Of a stretch of 64,000 bases of DNA, positions 18,338-62,350 are shown in pieces. A program made the position numbers and the translations under genes. The DNA comes from a virus. Each line of letters starts with the position of its first letter. The first letter of the stretch is position 1. The stretch lies in the IMG/VR virus record IMGVR_UViG_3300037325_000203. One strand, written 5' to 3'. Below the pieces are notes generated by a model. The model saw nothing but the letters and a program-made list of their open reading frames with translations, did no database searches and was not told the origin of the DNA.

Positions 18338-19738
18338 TTAGAAATCATAGCGGGCGGTCATTACAGTTTTAAGCATAATGCTGATTGGTGTCATTTCTTC
18401 GCCACCCAATACCGACTTAACGATGCTTGGGCTAAAGCCTGACACCAAGGCTGCACCTGACTCGTTGTAAGTCACTGGACTGTTGCCGGCGCGGCCATTC
18501 AGGTTCCAGAACACAATCTGTGGCATCTCGTATCCAGCATTATTGAACTCTTGTTTTACCATTTCCATAGCGCTAACACTCACGCCCCGAGAATTGGTCG
18601 AAACGCATTGATTAAATTCCATGTCAGACAGGATAAGGAGTTTGCTCGGCATTTCGCTCTGCGGTACACCGTGCTTAACGCCGGCGTTAAGCACCAGTTT
18701 AAACACTGCCTGAATGTTTGTGCTCATTCCCCAATCGGTTCGGGCCATCTGCTCGTAGCGCTGTATTAGGTTACCCGACACCTTTTGCAAAGAAGGGGTA
18801 CTACTAAAAGTAACAAATTGGTCCTTGAAAGCTCCACTTAGTCGTTCGGACAGATATAGTCCCAGAGAGATAGATACGTCCATAGCAGTTACACTACCAG
18901 ACACTTCGACGCCACTCATGGAGCCCGAGACATCTACGATTGGCAGAATATTTTCTCTTGACCCTTCGAGGTAGTTCGGCAGTGCCGCCCATTGTGCATT
19001 CGCCACAGTTGGGTCACCGTTGTTCAATGAACGAATAACATCGTATGGATATGCAACAGATGCATTGATCTTTGCCTCACCCGTAGCCAACTTAGCTTTG
19101 TAGTCGCCGTATCCCGCAGGATCATGCTTCAAGAAAGCTTTTTGGTAGCGCCCGGCGGCGACTGAGGGAACATGCGGATACACAATGCCAGTCCAGTCTT
19201 GCGCACACATTTTCTGCTCAACCGTGTTAGACAGACCGACCAGCAACTTACGGTACTGTTTCGGGGTCAATTTCAAGTAAGAGCGGATCTTGTTTGCTTC
19301 TGCACCCTGTCGAGGCATCCATTTTGCACACAATCCATCTCGGGTCTCGTTCAGTGCAAACGCAATCATGCGGAGAGCTTCGCGTTCGATGGGCGAACCG
19401 AATGCAACTAGCACATCATCCCACCGACCAAGTTCGGGCGCCTTTACCAGAACTCGGGAAGCGCTTGCCGGTTCGTTCTTCAGGATATAACTAAACAATT
19501 TCCGGAATGTATCGCGCTCACCTGCGCCGCCTCTTGCATCTCGGGCCCATTGCAATACACGAATTGCCACTTCCGAGTCTTCGACAAATGCCCCTACAAA
19601 AGTAGAGGTGATATCTTTACCGCGGCTCGCGCCGGCGAGAAAGAACAAGTCAACGTTCTTGTTCAACGAAGATGCGTTAGTAACTGCGCCGTTGGCAGTT
19701 GTAGCAGATGAATTTACGGCTTCAAATAGTGTTGTCAT
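18338..19738 (-). CDS. DUF2828-family protein with C-terminal vWA domain (possibly Ro60/TROVE-like)
   Basis: T.NGA, RDARGGAGER..F, GRWDD, AKWMPR, DVSGSM MIDAS, LSDMEF, FWNL, VSGFSP. Confidence 0.85.
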   Translation of the reverse strand: MTTLFEAVNSSATTANGAVTNASSLNKNVDLFFLAGASRGKDITSTFVGAFVEDSEVAIRVLQWARDARGGAGERDTFRKLFSYILKNEPASASRVLVKAPELGRWDDVLVAFGSPIEREALRMIAFALNETRDGLCAKWMPRQGAEANKIRSYLKLTPKQYRKLLVGLSNTVEQKMCAQDWTGIVYPHVPSVAAGRYQKAFLKHDPAGYGDYKAKLATGEAKINASVAYPYDVIRSLNNGDPTVANAQWAALPNYLEGSRENILPIVDVSGSMSGVEVSGSVTAMDVSISLGLYLSERLSGAFKDQFVTFSSTPSLQKVSGNLIQRYEQMARTDWGMSTNIQAVFKLVLNAGVKHGVPQSEMPSKLLILSDMEFNQCVSTNSRGVSVSAMEMVKQEFNNAGYEMPQIVFWNLNGRAGNSPVTYNESGAALVSGFSPSIVKSVLGGEEMTPISIMLKTVMTARYDF

Positions 19739-19748
19739 AATTTATCTC

Positions 19749-19783
19749 CAGAATTAATATTTAAAATTTGCTGTTTGAATTCT
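19749..19783 (-). promoter_or_regulatory. CAGCAA stem element overlapping DUF2828 RBS
   Basis: AGAATT-CAAACAGCAA...AATTCT-GGAG-ATAAATT-ATG. Confidence 0.65.
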
Positions 19784-19814
19784 TAAAAACATAGTATGTG
19801 ACAATTTACATGCT

Positions 19815-20045
19815 ATGTCAGGGGCGGCTACTCAAAAAGATACCAAATTGTTATTAGGTAATACAGAGGATCATCATATATTACCTAAATGCTTCAATCT
19901 CTGTGGAGAGAAAGATATAGAAAACTTTGACTTTCTTACTGTTAAGGGGCATTTTGTTGTGCATCATCCCGTGGATCAAAGTCTGTTCGAGAAATCAACA
20001 CCAACACATCATCGATGTCTACTTTGCCATCCACTATATCTCTAA
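19815..20045 (+). pseudogene. Degenerate HNH endonuclease fragment
   Basis: HHILPKC..GEKD.EN..LT.K.HF..H remnant only. Confidence 0.55.
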
Positions 20046-20072
20046 CGCAACGGCTATAACTAAGTCCAGTTT

Positions 20073-20270
20073 TCATTCTTCTGCTTCGAAATGTTCCAGT
20101 AATATTACATCAATGTGAGTTTGTTCACCATCTTCCCGTATAGCAAGATAAATTTCCTTGTCCAACACACTGATGCATTCCTGCACAATCAACTGGGCGA
20201 ATTTGTGATAATCAGGTCTTGGCAAGTCTTCCATGGACTGCTTTAGCAGTTGTTCAATTCGTTCATTCAT
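20073..20270 (-). CDS. Hypothetical phage protein (MNERI..FA.LIV.EC type)
   Basis: Small-ORF type common in phages. Confidence 0.65.
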   Translation of the reverse strand: MNERIEQLLKQSMEDLPRPDYHKFAQLIVQECISVLDKEIYLAIREDGEQTHIDVILLEHFEAEE

Positions 20271-20415
20271 GGGGTAACTCTGAAGTGTTCTTAACTAGCT
20301 TACCAAAGTAAGTTCGCTAATAAAATTGTTTTATTATTGGCGGTAACGAATCTTTTGCTTAAAAATATAGTGTACTATTATTTCTTTTATCTGTCAACTA
20401 CATTCAAAATTAAAA

Positions 20416-20645
20416 CTAGGTGATCGTAATTGGTTATTTTATTGTCTGGTCGATTTACTTTAATTACCCCGACCATATCACTAATCGTTAGTGACCGATT
20501 TCGTACTTGTGTCTGCTACGAACAACATATCGACATTCTGTCGCATATCCAATCTATTAGCGCTTAATATTTCTATCAAGTATAGCTTTGCGAGCTCACT
20601 GTCTTTGGCAACGATGCTTTATGTTTTAACTTGCTGTAATCACCT
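20416..20645 (-). ncRNA. Long CAGCAA-family ncRNA 1
   Basis: AGGTGAT-TACAGCAA...ATCACCT closing stem, internal hairpins, TCGACA-17-TATAAT upstream. Confidence 0.65.
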
Positions 20646-20690
20646 ATCAAACTTTATTATATAGTAACATCATTACAATGTCGACTAAAA

Positions 20691-20900
20691 ACAGAGTGGC
20701 GTAAGGAACACATAGTCTAAAAAGAATACATGTTGTACGGCCTTACCCGTAGATCGAACCTTTTACATCGTTCTAGGATGTTTATACCACTGTAAGTCTC
20801 CTTACGCAATAGGACCAGTTTCAACGAGTTTCCTCTCCACTGGATATATATGGTACGTACAGTTACCTTTCGGTAAGTTTTTGTTTGCTGTATCCACTCT
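20691..20900 (-). ncRNA. Long CAGCAA-family ncRNA 2
   Basis: AGAGTGG-ATACAGCAA...CCACTCT-GT closing stem, GNRA hairpins, TTGACT-18-TATAAT upstream. Confidence 0.68.
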
Positions 20901-20984
20901 TTGTGTATAACAAGTTCTATTATACAGTGTGTTTACTTATCTAGTCAACCCAAATCTGCTGCAGAAACAGGTTAACATATTGTC

Positions 20985-22223
20985 TTAAGAGTTGCGTTTA
21001 CCCATTAAAACAGAATCACGAATTCCGCCCTTCTTGTGAAGTTTATCAAGTTTTGCACTCATTACCGATAACTCTTCGCCATACTCTTTGAAGTATATGT
21101 CCTTTGCATTAGCTGACATACCTTTTGTTGGTACCATCAAATTCTGAAATAGAAGAGTAACAGTTGCATATGTCTGTTCGTCCTGACTTAGTGGCCTGGC
21201 TTCATCGGCTGTAGCTCGATTACGAGAGTCAACTGACATCTGATCTCTTACGAGTTCTGCAACTTTAGTCTGTGCTAATTTCAAAGCAGGAGACGAATTC
21301 CATATTGCAGGGAATTCAAACGATGCAACTTCTTTATCGTTTTCATCATAAACTGCATATCTCTTCTCATCTGGCAACACAGTATGATACGGGCGCTTTA
21401 TAGCCTCTGTCATTTGTTTTGTGTCTCGAAGATAGGCTAACTCTTTATCGATAAAGTCTGCGCCTCGCTTTAGTAATCTCTTATAGTCGGGGGACTGATC
21501 TTTAGTTTTAAATATATGGGCTATATCATGCATTTCTAATTGATATACAAGAATTTTGTGCATCTTGTCGCGTACCTGGGTTATACTAAGATTAGACTTT
21601 GCCAATCTATCAATCTGCGGAACTAAAGAATGCAATACCTGTACAAATCTTGCGTTAATTTCTGCCGGTTGGGCCAAGTAAGGCATGTCCGGTTTTCCGG
21701 GCTGTGGCGCTGTTCTGTGTGACTTGTCTTTGGGTTGAGAATATCTTCCATCGACTTTGTTGGCCTCGAATCCTGACTTAAAGTCATCTAGTGCATGTCG
21801 TAGTTCGTGTGCAATAATGGACTTTAGACTGGCTCGTCCCAATATGTCTTTATTAATCGTAATGCTTTCCTTATTACTATCCCAGACACCACGCGGGGCT
21901 CTGGCCAATTTATCGTCTTTGGCTACAAGCCCCAGGCTTCTTGCTGTGCTTAAAAAAGATTCGTCCGATTGTAAAATCAATTCTACAGAGTTTAATTCTT
22001 CCAGAGATGTATTAAAGATGTTTCCTATTTTACCGAGCTCGATTCTGTCCGAGGAACTGAAACTTGGGTCGAAGTCATCTCCATAGTCCGGATCATCATC
22101 GAGATCGAACTCATAGTCGTCGTACTCATACTCGTTCATCTTATCCGCAATTGCTGAGGCCAATGATATGATTGCTCGGTCTTCCTCCGAAGATTCATTT
22201 AAAAATAGCTCTATCAGTCTCAT
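20985..22223 (-). CDS. Putative virion-packaged protein with HExxH zincin motif
   Basis: AHELRHALD..EINAR; MRLIELF start; late motif at 22245. Confidence 0.7.
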   Translation of the reverse strand: MRLIELFLNESSEEDRAIISLASAIADKMNEYEYDDYEFDLDDDPDYGDDFDPSFSSSDRIELGKIGNIFNTSLEELNSVELILQSDESFLSTARSLGLVAKDDKLARAPRGVWDSNKESITINKDILGRASLKSIIAHELRHALDDFKSGFEANKVDGRYSQPKDKSHRTAPQPGKPDMPYLAQPAEINARFVQVLHSLVPQIDRLAKSNLSITQVRDKMHKILVYQLEMHDIAHIFKTKDQSPDYKRLLKRGADFIDKELAYLRDTKQMTEAIKRPYHTVLPDEKRYAVYDENDKEVASFEFPAIWNSSPALKLAQTKVAELVRDQMSVDSRNRATADEARPLSQDEQTYATVTLLFQNLMVPTKGMSANAKDIYFKEYGEELSVMSAKLDKLHKKGGIRDSVLMGKRNS

Positions 22224-22964: not shown

Positions 22965-24014
22965 TTAGTCTTTTTCTTTAAGCAAATATATGTTAGAAAT
23001 CGCTTTAAAGGAGAACTTGCCGTCGACTCTCTTAAACACTAACCCTTCCCTGACAGGATGGGTAATGCTCGTACCTTCCGCAAATTTTAGTATGTCTGCC
23101 ACAGTTTGTATACCGAGTGTATCCCTTAAATTTGCAGTGTGTGCAATAACAGGAACGTGTTCTGCCATTTTTCTATCTAACCCGAATACGTGCATGTTGT
23201 CAACAAATCCTCGACGGCTGCTCGGGGACAAATACGATCCTTGGTCGATATCGTAGATGTCAAAGATATACAGTTTAGCAGCGGATAATCCCTCTCGATT
23301 CTGTTGTATACCCGGGCCCATAAGTTCCCCTTGTACCGCGTAATTCTGCCGTAAAGACGCTAATACTGACTGTAGTCCGGAGTCGACGAACATACGAACA
23401 TAGGAGTTACCTCCATTCGTATCGTCAACACTTAATTCCCAATTCCTGCTACACACACCTGTGTCGCCATTGTTGTAATACGCAGTGAACGAAGTCCCGT
23501 CTAGCTTTAGAGAAACTTCGAACTTCGAATCAAATTCAGCGAATATATCAGCGCCAATATTCTGGCAACGCTCTTGCTCAGTTTTACTAATAAAGGACGG
23601 AAAATTTCCTCGAACCACACCGGCAAGTTCTGCGGGTATTTGAGCTTCCCACTTCTTAATTCCTAAATTAGCTGTAACGTCTGTGTCAACAGAAAGTGTA
23701 CCATTAGTACTGCCGAGTACAGACAAAGAACATACGAATCCTTGACTAAGCTGTCCGCGTAATTTAATAGTTTTCAGTCTATGGCCCTTATTCCCCTCAA
23801 ATATGCGCGAGCGTTTTTCAACAAGATGTTGCCAAGCCGGGTTATCATCAGGTAAAAAACTATCTACCTCGCAATAAATGCAAAGTTCTCCTACATAGAA
23901 TTCTCCCTTCTTTACAACGGCTTGCCACCCGTCGATCTTAGCCAACACAATGAGGTCGGCACCTTCGATCGGCAATAGTTCGTCAATTTTTCTAATTGTT
24001 GCTAAGTTTCTCAT
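22965..24014 (-). CDS. RNA ligase, DRB0094/Rnl2-like family
   Basis: LATIRKI..L.PIEGAD, KLRGQLSQG, KLDGTS, QGELMG, EGLVFK, FKAISN. Confidence 0.9.
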   Translation of the reverse strand: MRNLATIRKIDELLPIEGADLIVLAKIDGWQAVVKKGEFYVGELCIYCEVDSFLPDDNPAWQHLVEKRSRIFEGNKGHRLKTIKLRGQLSQGFVCSLSVLGSTNGTLSVDTDVTANLGIKKWEAQIPAELAGVVRGNFPSFISKTEQERCQNIGADIFAEFDSKFEVSLKLDGTSFTAYYNNGDTGVCSRNWELSVDDTNGGNSYVRMFVDSGLQSVLASLRQNYAVQGELMGPGIQQNREGLSAAKLYIFDIYDIDQGSYLSPSSRRGFVDNMHVFGLDRKMAEHVPVIAHTANLRDTLGIQTVADILKFAEGTSITHPVREGLVFKRVDGKFSFKAISNIYLLKEKD

Positions 24015-24468
24015 TTGATTTCTCACTTATTGTTTTAAGAATAGCTTCGTGATGAGGCCAATCCGGGCTGTGTGTTGTAAGTGACCTTACCTGCTCGCCA
24101 AAGACTAGAGAAAACATAATCGCCGATTCTTTTGTCTGAAAACTAAATCGATACCAACAGTTCGTAACCTTGTACGACGCAACATTGTACGAATCATTAT
24201 GAGTCCTTTTATTGTCTGAGTACATTGTATAACTCAAATCAACGTCGTCCATTATGACTGTTTCTATTAGTGCAGATTCTATCCACTGGCGTATCTTTAC
24301 CTTAGGGACTGGACTATTTCCGTATTTACTATTATACATATACACATGATATGGATAATCCGGACTAGGCCATATATAAGAATATCTTTGACTAGATGTA
24401 CAATATGCGTCTGTAAAATACCACTCCGCCATATTCTGTATTTCGTGTTTAGCAACCAATGTTCCCAT
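23992..24468 (-). CDS. Hypothetical protein
   Basis: 158-aa ORF. Confidence 0.6.
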   Translation of the reverse strand: MGTLVAKHEIQNMAEWYFTDAYCTSSQRYSYIWPSPDYPYHVYMYNSKYGNSPVPKVKIRQWIESALIETVIMDDVDLSYTMYSDNKRTHNDSYNVASYKVTNCWYRFSFQTKESAIMFSLVFGEQVRSLTTHSPDWPHHEAILKTISEKSNEKLSNN

Positions 24469-31954: not shown

Positions 31955-32524
31955 TTACATATTTCCTGGACTCGTCTGACTACCTTGGTCTACCTGGCTT
32001 CTCTTGAGAATACATTAGTCGAAACGTGCAATGATTATTTTCATCTAATTTAGCTAATTTTTCTTTTAAAAAACAGCGGGCGTATTGTTCAAGGTATTTA
32101 TTCATAATATGCAATGTTTATCCATCGAGTAGATCCTCCCGGTTTAAGGCCGGGCTTGCATGATACACTACTATACTCGATGGATAAACACAGCGGGGAA
32201 GGGCTATAGTTCTTCCCATGTGTTTAAAATAAGCGGCAGATTAGAGCCGTCCCAGGATTTGCACTTGCCAGGTCTCTCTTTCGAGCGCATTACTATATGC
32301 TACAGGATAATCTGTCAGGTAGACTACATTGTAGTCTACCTTTTGCTAGCCACTATTATAGCAATGATGCTGGAATCTGTCAACAGGTTATGGTCCATCC
32401 TTTAACGCATTATCGATCTGTCGTCTAACATATTTGAGGTTTGGTTCGGAAATTGTATTAACCATTTCGTAGACTGTAAGATCTTCCCTAGTTGGTTATA
32501 AGGCGTATACTTTGGTCGTAAAAA

Positions 32525-32815
32525 CAGGGACCGAAGTCCCCATTGGTTGTTTATTTTACAAGGTAAGTCCTACCTCGGAGCGGCAGTTTCTTAGGCTGCG
32601 ACCATATCTGCGAAAGCAGACATGTTCAACTCGTTTGTATTTGCGTTTGCATTTACGATTTTGTATCATTTACGTCGGTTACATGACGATTCTATGTATA
32701 ATTTTGCCTGCGCGGTCGATAGCCAGTTCACCCCCACCTAAGTACCCTAAGTTACTTAGGTGGAGGTGGAGGAAGTCGAATCCTCGTGTCGCACATTCTC
32801 TGTTACACACTTGCT
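32525..32815 (-). ncRNA. ssrA: Circularly permuted two-piece tmRNA
   Basis: T-arm/acceptor GAGGATTCGACTTCCTCCACCTCCACC precedes GGGGGTGAACTGGCTATCGAC; tag frame ANANTNELNMSAFADMVAA*; terminator follows. Confidence 0.88.
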
Positions 32816-33258
32816 AACTAAATAGCAGAATTTCTCTTTAATCTATCTGCCGTGTACCCTCTTTTTAGAAAAGCGTCTTGGTCATACAGATTAATTATGC
32901 ATTTTGTGTTATCTAAACTCATCCAACACGTAGTTACAGTCTTACTTTTTTTACCAATTACCTATCGTGTTGCTAGCACATTTTGAAAACACAGAAGAGC
33001 AGAATGGTATTGGACGAGTTGGGTAACGTCTTGGGTATAACATCGGGCTTCCTGTCAGTATTTAGTTAAGCACTATCAAGACATGACTAGTGCCTCTACG
33101 TTTCGTCTAACGGTCGGATGCAGCCGACTGCTGAGGTGCGCTACCACCTTTAACATTTAGTCAAATAGTGCTTAGCCTCAATTATAACAACCAGACGCAG
33201 TTAGACGCAAGTATCCAAGTGTGTTAGCATAATTACACGTGATATCTTAACTGAGGCA

Positions 33259-46237: not shown

Positions 46238-46825
46238 TTAATTCCTAATAAGTTCGTATCTGCTTGTTGTTCTGTTAAATAACACGACACCGCTTTTCAC
46301 TAGTTCAAAAATTATGCTCTCACTTGCTGCATGTAGCTTGTTATGCACTGCAACGGTGGTCAAAAATAAATTCGACATATCATTGTTCTGCTTGTCTCCG
46401 TCGATATGATGAACAACTTCACCCTTATTCAACCCTCGTTTTAAATAACACTCCATTAAATATACATGCTCCCTTATCGATCTGTAACCCCCGGGTTGAT
46501 AAGGATAGTCTTTACCGATATATACTTCGGGATAACCACTTCGGCTAAGCTTTTTAAATCCAACACGATCGCCAAGAGACTTCTTTATCTTTGCTTCATA
46601 CCCGACTATGCCGGCAATTTTGGCGACGCCATGTAATGCCACACATGCTGGGCAAAATGTCTTTGCATTCTTCTTAGTCTGACTCGTCTTAGCTCGAGTA
46701 AAAATCGCTATACACAAGTCACGTTCAAATTGGGCCACAAAAGAATTTCTGCAATATGTAACTAACTTTCCAAATTTGCTGGATCTCACAAATTCTGTTG
46801 ATACTACTGTTTCCCCGACGTACAT
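46238..46825 (-). CDS. HNH homing endonuclease
   Basis: [23 protein letters not shown]. Confidence 0.85.
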
Positions 46826-48147: not shown

Positions 48148-48221
48148 TGGTAGGCCCGGAAGGTACTGACCCTTCTTTTACTGGTTAAAAGCCAGCTACT
48201 TTACCTTTAAGTTACGAGCCC
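48148..48221 (-). tRNA. tRNA-Lys(TTT), atypical T loop
   Basis: GCTGG-CTTTTAA-CCAGT. Confidence 0.75.
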
Positions 48222-49373: not shown

Positions 49374-50226
49374 AAATATCTGCAAATTGTTAAGATTCAA
49401 TGTGGTATAGGCTGATGTCTGATAAACTCATCTAGGATTTGAACCTAGCCACCCACCCGTAAGGAAGTATGCATCCATTACATCTATGAGACATTGTCTT
49501 AGTACCGCGGCAACGTAGTTCAACAAAGTCAGAATACAGACCACTGACGATTGCCGTCAATCAGCCTATACCACACTAAATTTAATTGTTGAGTTTGATC
49601 AGCATATCCTCATGACCGAGGAAATCGGGCATGGATTTTTACCAGGGGTACCGCGTCAGCGGGTCTGGTTTTACTCCGATCAAACTCAACAAAATTTTAA
49701 AGATCACCGAAGCACATCCGATCATGTTCTTCGTCTGGGGTTCTGTTTCATCCCCTTGGTATGTGTTTATTATAACATATCCAACAATAAAAGTAAAACT
49801 TATTTTGATCGGAATTTGTTATTTTTAAGAAAATTCACTAAAACATTGACCGAAAGCAGTGCGAAACGGTTGCTGATCGAATCTTCTTAAAAATAACGAA
49901 TTCTGTTTCAATCCCCTTTGTATATGTATATTATAACACAGACCAGAATAAAAGTAAAATCAAACTCGATCCCAGACTTTAAACTGTTCCAGCTCAATCT
50001 GCTGGATTGCGCCTTCAAGCATTTGCAGAGTCGCAGCCGAATCCGATGTGAATGCATCCGTATAAGTGGATTTATCAAGGGCCTGGAGCGCTTCAAGCGC
50101 ATAAATGGCCGAGAGCATCTTGTGCTTCGCACGATCTTTGAGAGATTAAGGTGCGCTGTTCTCTGGTGAGGATATTTGTATTCATAAGTTATTATAACAT
50201 AGACTAGAATAAAAGTAAAGGCTGAC

Positions 50227-51509: not shown

Positions 51510-52382
51510 TAAAGGTCTGAGATTACAACCTTTACTAATGAAACTTCAAGTATTATCAATTAGCCTTGCGAGCTAACCTTCTCTTGACATCCACCCGGTC
51601 TGCTTTCACAGTATCCAAGTATTTCACCAACATCGCCGTTTAGAGTCAGGCATTGGACTTGACATGATATTCTACTCTGTAACTTCATTCCCGTCTGCCT
51701 TGCGAGCAGTTCACAGTCGCTAAACCGTTCCGAACTTCCTGTTACAAACCAACTTTGCCTTGCGAGCTCTGTCAGACTTGGTTACCTTGCGGCCCAAGTA
51801 TTAGATGTTTTTCAAATATCACCGAAGTAGTCTTTGCTTTTTATTTCAATAAACCTTTGAAGCGGATTTGTAGTCCAAATCTACTGTGATGTGCTACTTC
51901 AGTTGCTGAATATCTTGTTAGATACCCAATACAACACACCACGTACCTTTTGCCTTGCGAGCTACTCAGTCGTCTTTCACGATACATGTCATACATACGG
52001 ATTTTACTCCGGTCACGGCGTGCCATATTCCGATCAAACTGCATACAAGCCCTTAGTTGCGACGCTTCGGACAAATATGCTACCCTTTCTCATACCATCT
52101 ACTAAGTTGGTTTGTCGAGAGGTCAGCACCACCTGTTACTCTTTGCTTACTTGCGTTACCCTTGCGGGCGCTTGAGCAAACATTCTTTCCTCGACACTTA
52201 CTTCAATGTTATCTCACCCGGTGTTACCTCAGATAAGTATGCCTTACGGCATTGAGCAGGCTTGCCTAGTATTCCCTTGCAGGCGACGGTATGTAGAAGT
52301 CCCGTCCTTTCCACGTCTCGCGACGCTTGTCATTCGCTGCAGGCTGGGCGAACCATACCTGCAACAGGAGCTAGGCCCCCTT
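51510..52382 (-). ncRNA. Giant structured RNA, GOLLD-like
   Basis: ~870 nt, GC-richer, no credible ORF, repeated GCTCGCAAGGC GNRA hairpins, inside tRNA array. Confidence 0.7.
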
Positions 52383-53128: not shown

Positions 53129-53185
53129 CAGAATACCTTTTGTTTTTAAAACCATATTAAAATTTTAATTTGCTGTAGGTAATCT
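53129..53185 (-). ncRNA. Short CAGCAA element
   Basis: AGATTACC-TACAGCAA...GGTATTCT-GT. Confidence 0.6.
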
Positions 53186-54506: not shown

Positions 54507-54582
54507 TGGACACCCGGGTGAGAATCTAACTCACACAAAACTGTTTTGCAGGCAGCCCCGTTAAACATTCCGGCACCGGGTG
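54507..54582 (-). tRNA. tRNA-Cys(GCA), divergent
   Basis: CTGCAAA loop, U73. Confidence 0.65.
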
Positions 54583-54812: not shown

Positions 54813-54888
54813 TGGCGGGCAGTGTACGACTCGAACGCACATTACAAGGATTTGGAATCCCGGAGCTTGCCAATTAGCAGAACTACCC
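54813..54888 (-). tRNA. tRNA-Trp(CCA)
   Basis: GGGA-TTCCAAA-TCCT, G73. Confidence 0.75.
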
Positions 54889-55521
54889 TTTATTTTGTCT
54901 AGGCATGGCGCCTTTCTTCCACCCTAAACTTTCGTAATAAGGTAACTCATTTTTATCAATTCTCTTAGCAATGCTACTATTATTAATTAATGTCTTTCCT
55001 AAATTTGCTCTAGATACTTTTGCAATATGATCCTGCGAACACGTTCTACCAGTTAGTGCTTTAGAGACTTTATTCCTAGTTTCTGCGTTATCTCTCATAG
55101 CATTATTTTTAGATAATTTTAGGCGTTTTTCGGGAGATGTCGCCTGTTTTAGTGCAGACTGACGTATCTTCTCTTTAGTTTCGGCGGAATGAATTCTTCC
55201 AGCAAACGCGCCCACTATGCCCGGATTACCGCCGCTACCACCTATTTTTAAATTATACGATAGCGAATCACTTACTAAGTTTTTATCAACTATATGTTTC
55301 TCCATAATAAACATATCTTGTTTTGTAGGTAATAAATGTAAGATTGTTTTCTTAAAATTTTCTTTTCCGTATTTCTTAATTGCCCGTTTAAGATGTTTTC
55401 CGGACCCCATATAACCGTCGTTTAGATTTAGTGTTTGGTGGCAACCGATATAATATTTTTTATCTAACTGATTAGTAGTTTTGTAAATTATATAGTACAT
55501 TGTACTATATTTATGCAACAC
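54883..55521 (-). CDS. GIY-YIG (Seg-like) homing endonuclease with NUMOD3-like repeats
   Basis: IIYKTTN..YYIG.H..YMGSG..AIKKYG..YNL..GG.GG, HSAETKEKI. Confidence 0.9.
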   Translation of the reverse strand: MLHKYSTMYYIIYKTTNQLDKKYYIGCHQTLNLNDGYMGSGKHLKRAIKKYGKENFKKTILHLLPTKQDMFIMEKHIVDKNLVSDSLSYNLKIGGSGGNPGIVGAFAGRIHSAETKEKIRQSALKQATSPEKRLKLSKNNAMRDNAETRNKVSKALTGRTCSQDHIAKVSRANLGKTLINNSSIAKRIDKNELPYYESLGWKKGAMPRQNKG

Positions 55522-56091: not shown

Positions 56092-56187
56092 ATTATTCGT
56101 GAGTGTATTTTCTAACGCGACACGATCTCAGCCGCGACTTACGAACAAATATACATGTACAAGGTCTATTTGTCTATCTTTTGTTGG

Positions 56188-56306
56188 TGGTAGTGCCCCA
56201 GGGATTCGAACCCCGATCTCGTCCTTAGAATGGAATTGATTTTGGTTGCTGTATGAATCCTATGCAGGATTACTTTCTACGTGTGCTACCATTACACCAG
56301 GGCACT
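56188..56306 (-). tRNA. tRNA-Arg(TCT) with 45-nt CAGCAA-element insertion in anticodon stem
   Basis: Removing 56235-56279 gives CGTCC-ATTCTAA-GGACG in a full cloverleaf. Confidence 0.72.
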
Positions 56307-56311
56307 ATTTC

Positions 56312-56387
56312 TGGTGGGAGTACAGGGATTTGAACCTTGACTTGTCAGATTAAGAGTCTGCTATGCTACCAATAACATCTCACTCCC
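56312..56387 (-). tRNA. tRNA-Lys(CTT)
   Basis: CAGA-CTCTTAA-TCTG. Confidence 0.85.
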
Positions 56388-56420
56388 GAATTATGATATC
56401 CCCGTAGGGAATCGAATTAA

Positions 56421-56686: not shown

Positions 56687-57331
56687 TTACTTGAAGGTTA
56701 CAGGAATCGGTTGTTTAACTTTTGTCGAAAATACAAAGTCATGCAACTGGTGATGCACTCGTCTATTCATGTCGGGATTATTAAATCCTACACCCATTAA
56801 CAGAACTGGCTCATTTTCCATAGCTAATAGGTTTTGAATTGCAGCACCGTCAAAACAGGCACAGCAACCTGTACTATAGTCCATCATACTAGCTGTAAGG
56901 TTTACATATCCTGCAGCAATGCCTACAGCCATTTCGGTATCTCTGCGTAATGTATCTAGTTGTGATGCCGACGCTGTGTTGTCCAGAATTGCCCTAGTTT
57001 CTTCGTTACGATAGATATCGGTAGATAAGACAGGCACATAATTATTTTTTTCAAAGACGATAACCAAGTTAGCTAAAATTTGACTGTTAGTTTCGGTTTC
57101 GTACTTTTTGCTACGGCTAGCATGGCGTGTGAACTCGTGAATTTGTTCAATTGTTGCCCTGTCCGTAATGAAATAAGCTTTGTAAAAAGCAATATTCTGC
57201 TTGCTAGGGCACTGTGTAACTGCATGCACAAGAAGATCTAAATCCTCTTGTGGAATGCTCTTGCTTAGGTCCCAGTTTCGCTGGCAGTGTTGACTTCTAA
57301 CGATCGCTTTTGATAATACTGAATGGTCCAT
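56687..57331 (-). CDS. Nitroreductase family protein
   Basis: R.WD.SK.IP.E..PSKQN..GIAAG..TGCCACFD..LLMGVG; late motif. Confidence 0.8.
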   Translation of the reverse strand: MDHSVLSKAIVRSQHCQRNWDLSKSIPQEDLDLLVHAVTQCPSKQNIAFYKAYFITDRATIEQIHEFTRHASRSKKYETETNSQILANLVIVFEKNNYVPVLSTDIYRNEETRAILDNTASASQLDTLRRDTEMAVGIAAGYVNLTASMMDYSTGCCACFDGAAIQNLLAMENEPVLLMGVGFNNPDMNRRVHHQLHDFVFSTKVKQPIPVTFK

Positions 57332-57897: not shown

Positions 57898-57954
57898 ACA
57901 GTGTTCTTATTTTTCAATTAAAAGTTGAATTTTTATATTTGCTGAACGAACACT
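57898..57954 (-). ncRNA. Short CAGCAA element with Lys-like anticodon hairpin
   Basis: AGTGTTC-GTTCAGCAA..TTCAA-CTTTTAA-TTGAA..GAACACT-GT. Confidence 0.65.
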
Positions 57955-60919: not shown

Positions 60920-62350
60920 ATTTCGGACTTTTTTTACGACGCGCAGGTACGCAGATATCTACTACAATTTATGCGGATCTTTTCAGATATTAAGATCAGA
61001 AAGGGCCCAGATGCCAACGGCTTATATACAGTGCAACGTGTGCCCATTATGTATGGTGACCCATCTTCTATGGTTGCTCAGCTTATTAAGGGTGCAAGCG
61101 AGAATACATTACTTCCGGCACCCATGTTTAGTGCTTGGATAGAAAATATCAGAATGGTCCCGGAGCGAAGACAGGACACACAGTATGTAAGAAAAACTTC
61201 TGTAATAGAGAGAAGATTCGACAGCAACACAGGATCATACAGCAGCGAGGCCGGGGTAAGACAAGATACAGAGATGTACATGCCTGTTCCATACGACATA
61301 AATTTCAGACTCGATGTATGGACAACTAACGTCACGGCAAAGTTGCAAATATTTGAACAAATAGGTGTTATCTTTAATCCATCTATTCAACTTCAACAGA
61401 ATAGTAACTTACTCGATTGGACTAGTATAACAGAAGTGTGGCTAGAAGATGTAATATGGACCAACCGATCTGTTCCTCAAGGAAGCGACGAACAACGTGA
61501 TGTGATGAGTTTTAAATTTAAAATACAAGCATGGATTAACCCTCCTGCAAAAGTCAAAAGAAGCGGACTCATTGCTGAAATTGTTACTCGCGTATTTGAT
61601 GTTCAGGACGTGGCCGGCATACATGATCCATTCGACTGTATCGGGGGAATTCCTGTCCAGATCGTCACGACCGTCGGTAATTACAAAATTTCAGTCACTA
61701 AAGGACCGTCGACTGATACAATCACATTACTAAATGCCAATGGTCAAATGGACACGAATCTAAGTTGGGATGATCTAATCAAGCAATACGGTCAAATTAC
61801 TCAAAATATTACAAACATCAGATTAAGACTAGATCCGAATTTAGACATATCAGATTCTGACATTATCGGAGGAATCATGCAAGATCCTAACAATCAAAAT
61901 GTATTGTTTTTTACACCGGATGTCGACACCTTACCGGTGGCTAGTATGCTGCCTATTTCTGCAATTATAGACCCAACTGAGGTGTTCCCGGGCAGCGGAC
62001 TGCCTACATCAATGCCGGGGCAACGATACTTGCTTACATCGGCTAACAGCGCAGGGGAGGAGCCCGCAATACCGGCTGGCGTACCTACATCGCCGTGGGG
62101 GCAACTCATAGTTGCATATCCAAATGACGTTATCGAGTATAACGGAACAAGATGGGTGGTAATATTCGACTCACAAAATGCTACATATAAAAATTATGTA
62201 ATAAATAATGAAAACGGATATCAGTATACATTTGACCCGGCTGCCGGAGAATGGACATATACGTATTACGGCACATATCAACCTGGATATTGGCGCATAG
62301 ATAACATAATTCAATCACCAGATGGAACTACAATCAGTACATACGAATAA
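60920..62350 (+). CDS. Tail terminator/sheath stabiliser (gp15-like), extended C-terminus
   Basis: FFYDAQVRRYLLQFMRIFS, VPIMYGD, MPVPY, QI.EQI..FNP; start uncertain (ATT at 60920 or ATG at 60971). Confidence 0.78.
   Translation: MSDFFYDAQVRRYLLQFMRIFSDIKIRKGPDANGLYTVQRVPIMYGDPSSMVAQLIKGASENTLLPAPMFSAWIENIRMVPERRQDTQYVRKTSVIERRFDSNTGSYSSEAGVRQDTEMYMPVPYDINFRLDVWTTNVTAKLQIFEQIGVIFNPSIQLQQNSNLLDWTSITEVWLEDVIWTNRSVPQGSDEQRDVMSFKFKIQAWINPPAKVKRSGLIAEIVTRVFDVQDVAGIHDPFDCIGGIPVQIVTTVGNYKISVTKGPSTDTITLLNANGQMDTNLSWDDLIKQYGQITQNITNIRLRLDPNLDISDSDIIGGIMQDPNNQNVLFFTPDVDTLPVASMLPISAIIDPTEVFPGSGLPTSMPGQRYLLTSANSAGEEPAIPAGVPTSPWGQLIVAYPNDVIEYNGTRWVVIFDSQNATYKNYVINNENGYQYTFDPAAGEWTYTYYGTYQPGYWRIDNIIQSPDGTTISTYE

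Follow-up and report, generated by a model that had tools for sequence, protein, structure and literature searches.

The minus strand of a T4-like phage encodes a 119-nt RNA shaped like a tRNA, in which a 45-nt insert splits the 5′ strand of the anticodon stem. As suggested by the comparison of its sequence with those of its relatives, this RNA (together with the relatives referred to below as tagged tRNAs) is probably a Y-RNA-like tRNA mimic, wired as a normal tRNA and permanently equipped with a Ro-like docking arm, and not a spliced tRNA-Arg. Since the same module frames small RNAs beside the gene of a predicted Ro60-type protein, the arm was read as a docking site for this type of protein, and it most likely serves as a docking handle and not as an intron.

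The analysed window, i.e., the whole 64,000-nt stretch of DNA, belongs to a T4-like phage and contains the gene of the gp15 tail-sheath stabiliser (positions 60971–62350 of the window). Its minus strand carries 32 tRNA genes and a permuted tmRNA, and a GOLLD RNA is also present. No close relative of the region of the element was found in the INPHARED phage collection. The tmRNA is of the permuted two-piece type, located at 32500–32881 on the minus strand, with the tag peptide ANANTNELNMSAFADMVAA. Two Rfam tRNA matches outside the ARAGORN list were detected on the minus strand at 48151–48221 and 54510–54582 (54.5 and 49.8 bits, respectively). Among the genes of the tRNA array are ORFs of endonucleases, a GIY-YIG one (SegE-like) at 54883–55521 and an HNH one at 46238–46825, both on the minus strand, and an ORF of the nitroreductase family is located at 56687–57331. 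The GOLLD RNA is full-length (194 bits) and lies inside the tRNA array at 51514–51942 on the minus strand. Its 5′ part contains AGATAT-T-CAGCAA (approximately 51903–51915), which may be a coincidence.

Anatomy of the tRNA-shaped element

Between the two acceptor strands of 56188–56306, the order of parts is the D arm, a single A, the CG dinucleotide, the 45 nt, TCC-ATTCTAA-GGACG, AGAT and the T arm (Table 1). The earlier note described intact acceptor, D and T arms and a 5′ anticodon strand split as CG/45 nt/TCC, and this anatomy matched the minus-strand reading part by part. The motif that it reported in the insert (AATCCT-GCAT-AGGATT-CATA-CAGCAA) is present as well. Deletion of 56235–56279 results in CGTCC-ATTCTAA-GGACG. 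The element possesses the canonical tRNA features of a 7-bp acceptor stem, a D arm, a T arm with the GTTCRAAT loop and a discriminator followed by CCA, but it does not have an uninterrupted 5-bp anticodon stem with a 7-nt loop, as the 45 nt interrupt this stem. An alternative UAGAA/UUCUA pairing, which would hide the anticodon of the window copy, was dropped because it was not conserved in relatives.

The region 56188–56306 was called neither by ARAGORN nor by the Rfam tRNA model (RF00005). When the insert was removed in silico, ARAGORN called a tRNA for the window copy and for all 56 other well-parsed relatives. A search of 56100–56400 against Rfam with E up to 10 revealed nothing relevant and no Y RNA-like match. 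Self-cleaving ribozymes (hammerhead CUGANGA..GAAA, twister and pistol) were considered and rejected, with no match by eye and none in Rfam.

The insert is not an assembly error. Contigs of two other sequencing runs carry it with zero differences and with no joint across the insert. The runs listed for this stretch included no RNA run. Uniqueness of the insertion to this assembly, which the earlier note named as an observation that would speak against its reading, was not borne out, considering the contigs of these two further runs and the 70 distinct relatives described below.

Table 1. Coordinates of the tagged tRNA, its parts, the framed CAGCAA RNAs and the Ro-like gene in the window.
Feature	Position	Strand	Basis
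Whole tRNA-shaped RNA gene with extra arm, 119 nt	56188–56306	minus	Sequence read, covariation in relatives
Acceptor stem, 5′ strand AGTGCCC	56300–56306	minus	All 7 acceptor pairs covary (51 relatives)
Acceptor stem, 3′ strand GGGCACT (56192–56198), with discriminator A and encoded CCA (ACCA, 56188–56191)	56188–56198	minus	
D arm GTGT-AATGGTA-GCAC	56283–56297	minus	Sequence read, covariation
CG, outer 5′ nucleotides of the anticodon stem, upstream of the insert; pair with the last two of GGACG	56280–56281	minus	
Insert, 45 nt, read as extra arm (handle)	56235–56279	minus	Same position in 70 distinct relatives
Handle hairpin P2, AATCCT-GCAT-AGGATT	56256–56271	minus	AUCCU/AGGAU nearly invariant
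CAGCAA box, 10 nt after AG of AGGATT	56246–56251	minus	Invariant in 51-sequence alignment
Anticodon loop and inner stem, TCC-ATTCTAA-GGACG; anticodon-like triplet UCU, 56227–56229	56220–56234	minus	
T arm CGGGG-TTCGAAT-CCCTG	56199–56215	minus	Sequence read, covariation
DUF2828+DUF7788 protein gene (466 aa), proposed Ro60-like handle partner	18338–19738	minus	Pfam; PHROG 850 'RNA-binding protein'
Framed CAGCAA element, 34 nt, directly before Shine-Dalgarno and ATG of the Ro-like gene	19750–19783	minus	
Framed RNA, 228 nt, AGGTGATT..CAGCAA....GATCACCT, Y-RNA-like candidate	20418–20645	minus	Fold z-score -2.9
Framed RNA, 208 nt, AGAGTGG-ATA-CAGCAA....CCACTCT-G, Y-RNA-like candidate	20693–20900	minus	Fold z-score -2.6
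Framed CAGCAA element, 60 nt, in tRNA array	49828–49887	minus	
Framed CAGCAA element, 56 nt, inside tRNA array	53130–53185	minus	
Framed CAGCAA element, 55 nt; cargo is a 5-bp hairpin with 7-nt loop CUUUUAA	57900–57954	minus	

Relatives, covariation and the CAGCAA module

IMG/VR and metagenomes were scanned with a search pattern based on the insert hairpin with its CAGCAA box and on the T loop. The scan yielded 34 IMG/VR and 93 metagenome stretches, mostly from lakes, which gave 70 distinct sequences. As many as 57 of these could be parsed with essentially perfect D, anticodon and T stems, and the NCCA 3′ end was present in 51 of the 57. Among 51 aligned sequences, 98.5% of pair cells corresponded to standard pairs and 19 of the 27 pairs showed double changes; none of 500 shuffles reached the observed values and no slid register came close either. 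The two pairs bridging the insert (nucleotides 27–28 with 42–43) were paired in 100% of the 51 sequences and switched together across relatives (CG/CG, CU/AG and UU/AA). The check proposed in the earlier note, a search of related phages for the same insertion with covariation, thereby gave 70 distinct relatives with compensatory changes in every helix.

A covariance model (R1), in which the window copy (120 bits) was one of the training sequences, revealed exactly one tagged tRNA per locus. The scores exceeded 100 bits in 32 of the 33 loci and equalled 77 bits in L039, and ordinary tRNAs scored below 52 bits. In L039, an extra GCCGAAAGGC hairpin is located within the arm. In L129 and in the relatives with the UU type of bridging pairs, a contiguous stem can be built from the nucleotides immediately preceding UCC, so the insertion point is best put at the D/anticodon junction, after nucleotide 26–28. 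This point lies roughly opposite the variable loop. The arm is placed differently in L063, L102 and L129. Three metagenome loci (L056, L057 and L121) encode a different RNA of about 135–140 nt, with tRNA-like ends and a T arm, carrying ACCTGGTTAGGACAACAGCAA in another wiring.

In the anticodon loop of the relatives, U33 and A37 A38 are kept and the triplet varies. Loops of 8 nt were found in 25 of the 57 relatives (44%), and 32 had a 7-nt loop with a sense anticodon. The loops differed in 34 of 69 pairs of sequences with bodies at least 97% identical, and one acceptor stem (GGGGCCU/GGGCUCC) was combined with eight different loops. An ordinary tRNA of the same anticodon was often located in the same locus as the tagged tRNA; within the 64-kb window, no other tRNA with the anticodon UCU was detected. 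The label tRNA-Arg(UCU), assigned to the element in the earlier note, is doubtful as a description of function, considering the many other anticodons of close relatives and the share of 8-nt loops.

The acceptor GGGGCCT/GGGCTCC-ACCA was observed in L022, L024, L026, L038, L064 and other loci. In 20 of the 57 tagged tRNAs, G3-U70 is combined with A73 and with G1-C72/G2-C71, the acceptor signature used by AlaRS on tRNA-Ala and tmRNA; the window copy has U3-A70. By analogy with tmRNA, members of the subgroup with G3-U70 and A73 could be alanylated whatever the anticodon.

Three segments of the alignment of 51 sequences are invariant (CCUG, AGG and CAGCAA) and all of them are intact in the window copy. 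The P2 hairpin has the form N-AUCCU/AGGAU-N′, with an outermost pair that covaries (U-A, A-U, C-G and G-C). Its loop is usually GNNA (GCAU in the window copy), and a C follows the hairpin. The spacing from AG to CAGCAA equals 10 nt in 55 of the 57 tagged tRNAs, and the same value was obtained for 71 of 91 framed RNAs located next to Ro-like genes (described below). The module geometry AG-N8-CAGCAA is common to the tRNA insert and the framed RNAs that neighbour the DUF2828 gene. Another helix, P1, is formed by the start of the insert and the 4–5 nt after CAGCAA. Compensatory changes in P1 were identified in many relatives of the CG type, with the pairings UAAA/UUUA, UAUA/UAUA, UAG/CUA and UAGA/UCUA. 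P1 was not considered a defining part, as the window copy lacks it and its presence in the CU and UU types is unclear.

In the framed RNAs, the hairpin is open, as it holds the RNA ends, and the other side is closed; hence, the insert can be regarded as a circular permutation of the framed form. The 'circularly permuted CAGCAA module' of the earlier note corresponds well to this picture, in which the same AG-N8-CAGCAA geometry is opened at the other end in the framed RNAs. Judged by its sequence, the insert is a conserved module and not junk.

A predicted Ro60-type protein and the framed RNAs

The proposed partner of the handle is encoded on the same strand as the tagged tRNA, about 36 kb away from it (19738 vs 56188). 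The AlphaFold (AF2) model of this protein had a pLDDT of 76 and a pTM of 0.70. A Foldseek search with the model revealed full-length matches to Ro60/TROVE structures, over approximately 500 columns, with a probability of 1.00 and E values from 8e-9 to 4e-5. Among the matches listed (ranks 1–13), the top 12 were Ro60/TROVE entries, with TM-scores of mostly 0.52–0.55 (range 0.35–0.55). The best structural match was Ro60 of Thermus phage phiLo (E 8e-9), followed by Xenopus Ro, Deinococcus Rsr and human Ro60. The vWA MIDAS motif DxSxS is invariant. Based on the model, the DUF2828/DUF7788 protein is predicted to be a Ro60-type ring composed of TROVE and vWA parts, in agreement with the HEAT-repeat ring and the MIDAS-bearing vWA domain of such proteins. 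The Pfam search with the 466-aa sequence detected DUF2828 and DUF7788 only and no TROVE, and phmmer against the PDB sequences gave no Ro60 match.

At least 8000 close relatives of the DUF2828 protein occur in environmental data and the phage family is represented by at least 592 IMG/VR contigs. Nine of the 10 phage records with a tagged tRNA, both complete genomes included, encode the Ro-like protein, a co-occurrence whose weight is a matter of judgement, as it is not set against a formal background frequency of the protein in large phages. The lone record with a tagged tRNA and no Ro-like gene is a fragment, estimated as 39% complete. In the reverse direction, only one of the five examined records encoding the Ro-like protein has a tagged tRNA, so this RNA may be considered an optional member of the system. 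An ORF of 412 aa (20985–22223, minus strand), for which no Pfam or PHROG match was found, is located between the RNA ligase gene and the Y-like RNAs, and it adjoins the Ro-like gene in seven of the eight closest relatives.

The framed RNAs have the form A-AG[stem]-N-CAGCAA ... [stem]CU-G, and the examples in the window are on the same strand as the tagged tRNA. The analysis of 80 loci fetched by the neighbouring DUF2828 protein revealed 94 framed elements in 56 loci on the strand of the gene, and 14 elements in 13 loci on the opposite strand. The elements are located mostly within about 400 nt of the DUF2828 gene. A search of the framed RNAs at 19700–21000 against Rfam with E up to 10 gave nothing relevant.

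The element at 19750–19783 ends 12 nt before ATG and abuts the GGAG ribosome-binding site. Close relatives show the same arrangement, with a framed element located 12–17 nt before the start codon, and the element looks like an autoregulation site for the translation of the Ro-like protein itself. The gene order around the RNA at 20418–20645 is repeated in L137 and L138. The cargo of the element at 57900–57954 has the shape of the tRNA-Lys(UUU) anticodon arm and is located 9 nt after CAGCAA. Both in the short elements and in the tagged tRNA, an anticodon-type hairpin follows about 7–14 nt after CAGCAA, which suggests that the anticodon arm is the part presented by the particle.

Docking arm, intron or decoding tRNA

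In the proposed mechanism, the element would be a non-coding RNA consisting of a complete tRNA and a fifth arm, which leaves the 5′ strand after nucleotide 26–28. The arm consists of a short hairpin with a G..A-capped A-U/G-C end, followed by a single-stranded CAGCAA 10 nt from AG, and it would be kept in the mature RNA with no splicing out. The RNA is presumably expressed and processed like a tRNA. The Ro-like ring probably binds both the helix end (G..A cap, A-U and G-C) and the CAGCAA strand, which lies one helical turn from it. The tRNA body would be the 'cargo', i.e., the effector end, of a tether resembling Y RNA, according to the logic of YrlA but with the normal tRNA strand order. Most likely, the particle would present the tRNA or its anticodon arm to host enzymes acting on tRNA or to RNA repair/decay factors.

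A narrower proposal, considered tentative and rather unlikely, is that the handle enables the Ro60-like ring to display the anticodon arm as a bait or decoy for host anticodon-loop nucleases, or as a platform for the repair or decay of cut tRNAs. The anticodon arm would be shown alone in the 55–60-nt elements and within a whole tRNA body in the tagged tRNA. In that case, an arms race with such nucleases would have left its trace in the fast turnover of loops, 8-nt ones included, on a constant body. Loops that change this quickly would be compatible with a bait for host enzymes that target tRNA as well as with a role in tRNA repair or decay.

The interpretation given in the earlier note was supported in one of its two branches. 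The reading of the element as a tRNA/protein-tether chimera resembling YrlA gained comparative support from the shared module geometry, the predicted Ro60 fold and the near-exclusive co-occurrence with the protein, whereas its other suggestion, a novel spliced intron, found no support in view of exonless copies of the module and of the search for insert-free alleles and a splicing endonuclease described below. Several findings count against the docking arm. These include the 36-kb gap to the Ro-like gene and the low share of Ro-like records with a tagged tRNA, the difference between CAGCAA and the known Ro-binding motifs (GNCGAAN0-1G or CGAA), the match of the protein to DUF2828 and not to Pfam TROVE, and the window copy with no P1 and with GCAU in place of GNNA. 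Moreover, the removal of the insert leaves a flawless tRNA with an encoded CCA, as the intron model predicts, and a second UCU tRNA is missing from the 64-kb window.

The 45 nt could alternatively be a new short protein-dependent tRNA intron, cut at both junctions by a phage or host endonuclease that recognises the hairpin and the CAGCAA module, and followed by rejoining of the exons by a phage RNA ligase, which would give a working tRNA (tRNA-Arg-UCU in this phage). The perfect cloverleaf obtained in silico for all 57 parsed relatives, the covarying pairs that bridge the insert, the encoded CCA and the lack of any other UCU tRNA in the window are in accordance with this possibility, as is the RNA ligase gene, which the earlier note had correctly reported and which is located at 22965–24026. 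However, the module also occurs in free-standing copies, where there are no exons for a splicing reaction to connect. Unlike for typical mobile or optional introns, the search of about 225 loci and, for the CG type, of IMG/VR revealed no allele without the insert. A search for an archaeal-type splicing endonuclease (EndA-type, PF01974) was negative in all five phage records, among them three complete genomes with a tagged tRNA, and positive in four archaeal controls. The contiguous stem available in UU-type relatives and L129, with the insert between nucleotides 26 and 27, means that no splice is needed to build it. The share of 8-nt loops, the fast anticodon turnover on a constant body and the ordinary isoacceptors often located nearby also speak against an intron. 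The adjacency of the ligase was not seen in related Ro-like loci (a ligase of the window type in 1 of 84), which says little, as 2.5-kb flanks were covered and the distance in the window is 3.2 kb. The remark in the earlier note that the insert is too short for a group I or II intron is well founded, as it has 45 nt and no Rfam intron match, and a catalytic core needs hundreds of nucleotides. Taken together, splicing appears to be quite improbable.

A decoding tRNA that keeps its arm, is aminoacylated and is used by the ribosome, with the arm giving it protection from host anticodon nucleases, marking it for repair or controlling its availability, was considered unlikely. It would be in line with the preserved acceptor stem, discriminator, CCA, U33 and A37 and with the 32 of 57 relatives in which a sense anticodon is found in a 7-nt loop. 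In class II tRNAs, a long arm is tolerated at the variable loop, and the insertion at the hinge, roughly opposite this loop, would fit such a site. On the other hand, 8-nt loops are common, redundant ordinary isoacceptors occur nearby, and the eight loops found on the acceptor stem GGGGCCU/GGGCUCC are hard to square with the identity rules of synthetases. In addition, a bound protein of about 50 kDa by the anticodon stem would probably block entry into the ribosome. Finally, a small repeat element could have inserted into a tRNA gene and left it dead, in line with the element being missed by standard tRNA finders and with the absence of P1 from the window copy. This was judged extremely improbable and is effectively refuted by covariation. 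In 70 distinct relatives, the body and the insert are both maintained, with the insert at an unchanged point, each helix shows compensatory changes, and the window copy retains all invariant positions.

The RNA with a docking arm, which remains the preferred reading, was compared with known systems. Both bacteria and phages encode Y RNAs with tRNA-like domains alongside Ro60 (Chen et al. 2014, PMC4201824). Like the tagged tRNA, a YrlA-type Y RNA possesses tRNA-like D and T arms, an acceptor-like stem and a separate module for the Ro60 ring, and is encoded in genomes holding the protein, with phages among the carriers. The ends of YrlA are in the Ro-binding stem and its acceptor-like stem is closed, whereas the tagged tRNA has a 7-bp acceptor with NCCA and an internal module, with the wiring rotated. 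The framed RNAs at 20418–20900 resemble YrlA in having the 5′ and 3′ ends in the module stem. The motif differs as well (GNCGAAN0-1G in YrlA and AG-N8-CAGCAA in the tagged tRNA), and the full anticodon arm of the tagged tRNA has no counterpart in YrlA. YrlA is located within about 4 kb of rsr, whereas 36 kb separate the tagged tRNA, a member of the tRNA array, from the Ro-like gene. The tagged tRNA was also not matched by the Rfam model of YrlA ('Y RNA-like'). By analogy, the tagged tRNA would work like a YrlA-type Y RNA, yet it departs from this family in the motif, strand order, gene distance and Rfam model.

Ro60 of phage phiLo binds Y-like RNAs encoded just upstream of its gene, and complexes of Y RNA with PNPase provide a parallel for the tether logic (PMC12135203). 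As in the window, Thermus phage phiLo (PMC12135203; PDB 9KOP and 9L5Y) encodes a Ro60-fold protein with two Y-like RNA genes (Yrl1/Yrl2) directly upstream, a layout equal to that of 20418–20900 upstream of 18338–19738. The sequence identity between phiLo Ro60 and the window protein is about 16%, and the latter is assigned to DUF2828/DUF7788 and not to Pfam TROVE. The phiLo RNAs rely on a CGAA bulge and do not have the shape of a tRNA with an extra arm.

The insert resembles archaeal non-canonical BHB introns, removed by EndA, in being short, in its location in the anticodon stem off the 37/38 site and in the restoration of the cloverleaf on removal. It differs from them as a conserved module common to non-intron RNAs, with no insert-free alleles found, and the 5′ junction in relatives lies inside helix P1 and not in a bulge. 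To our knowledge, no EndA-type splicing endonuclease is known in bacteria. The T4 'species 1 and 2' are small stable RNAs of the tRNA cluster with tRNA-like ends, of unknown role and with no known Ro-like link. They are similar to the tagged tRNA in being small RNAs among the tRNA genes of a T4-type phage, a likeness by description only.

No description of the arrangement was found in the literature on DUF2828, CAGCAA and phage Ro60 tRNA-like RNAs, nor was there a published account of DUF2828 as Ro60-like, of the CAGCAA module or of a tRNA bearing this kind of arm. The conservation of Ro60/Y-RNA particles extends from bacteria to humans, and the role of their tRNA-like halves is still unclear. 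Here, the RNA partner is an almost perfect tRNA with a small, sharply defined candidate docking module (AG-N8-CAGCAA), and the same module is also found on bare anticodon-like hairpins. This would provide a simple, mutable system for the analysis of RNA recognition by the Ro-type ring and of what a tRNA-shaped tether recruits. Elements resembling a 'tRNA with intron' in phage arrays can represent another class of RNA, missed by standard tRNA finders, which affects tRNA counts and codon-usage inferences for large phages.
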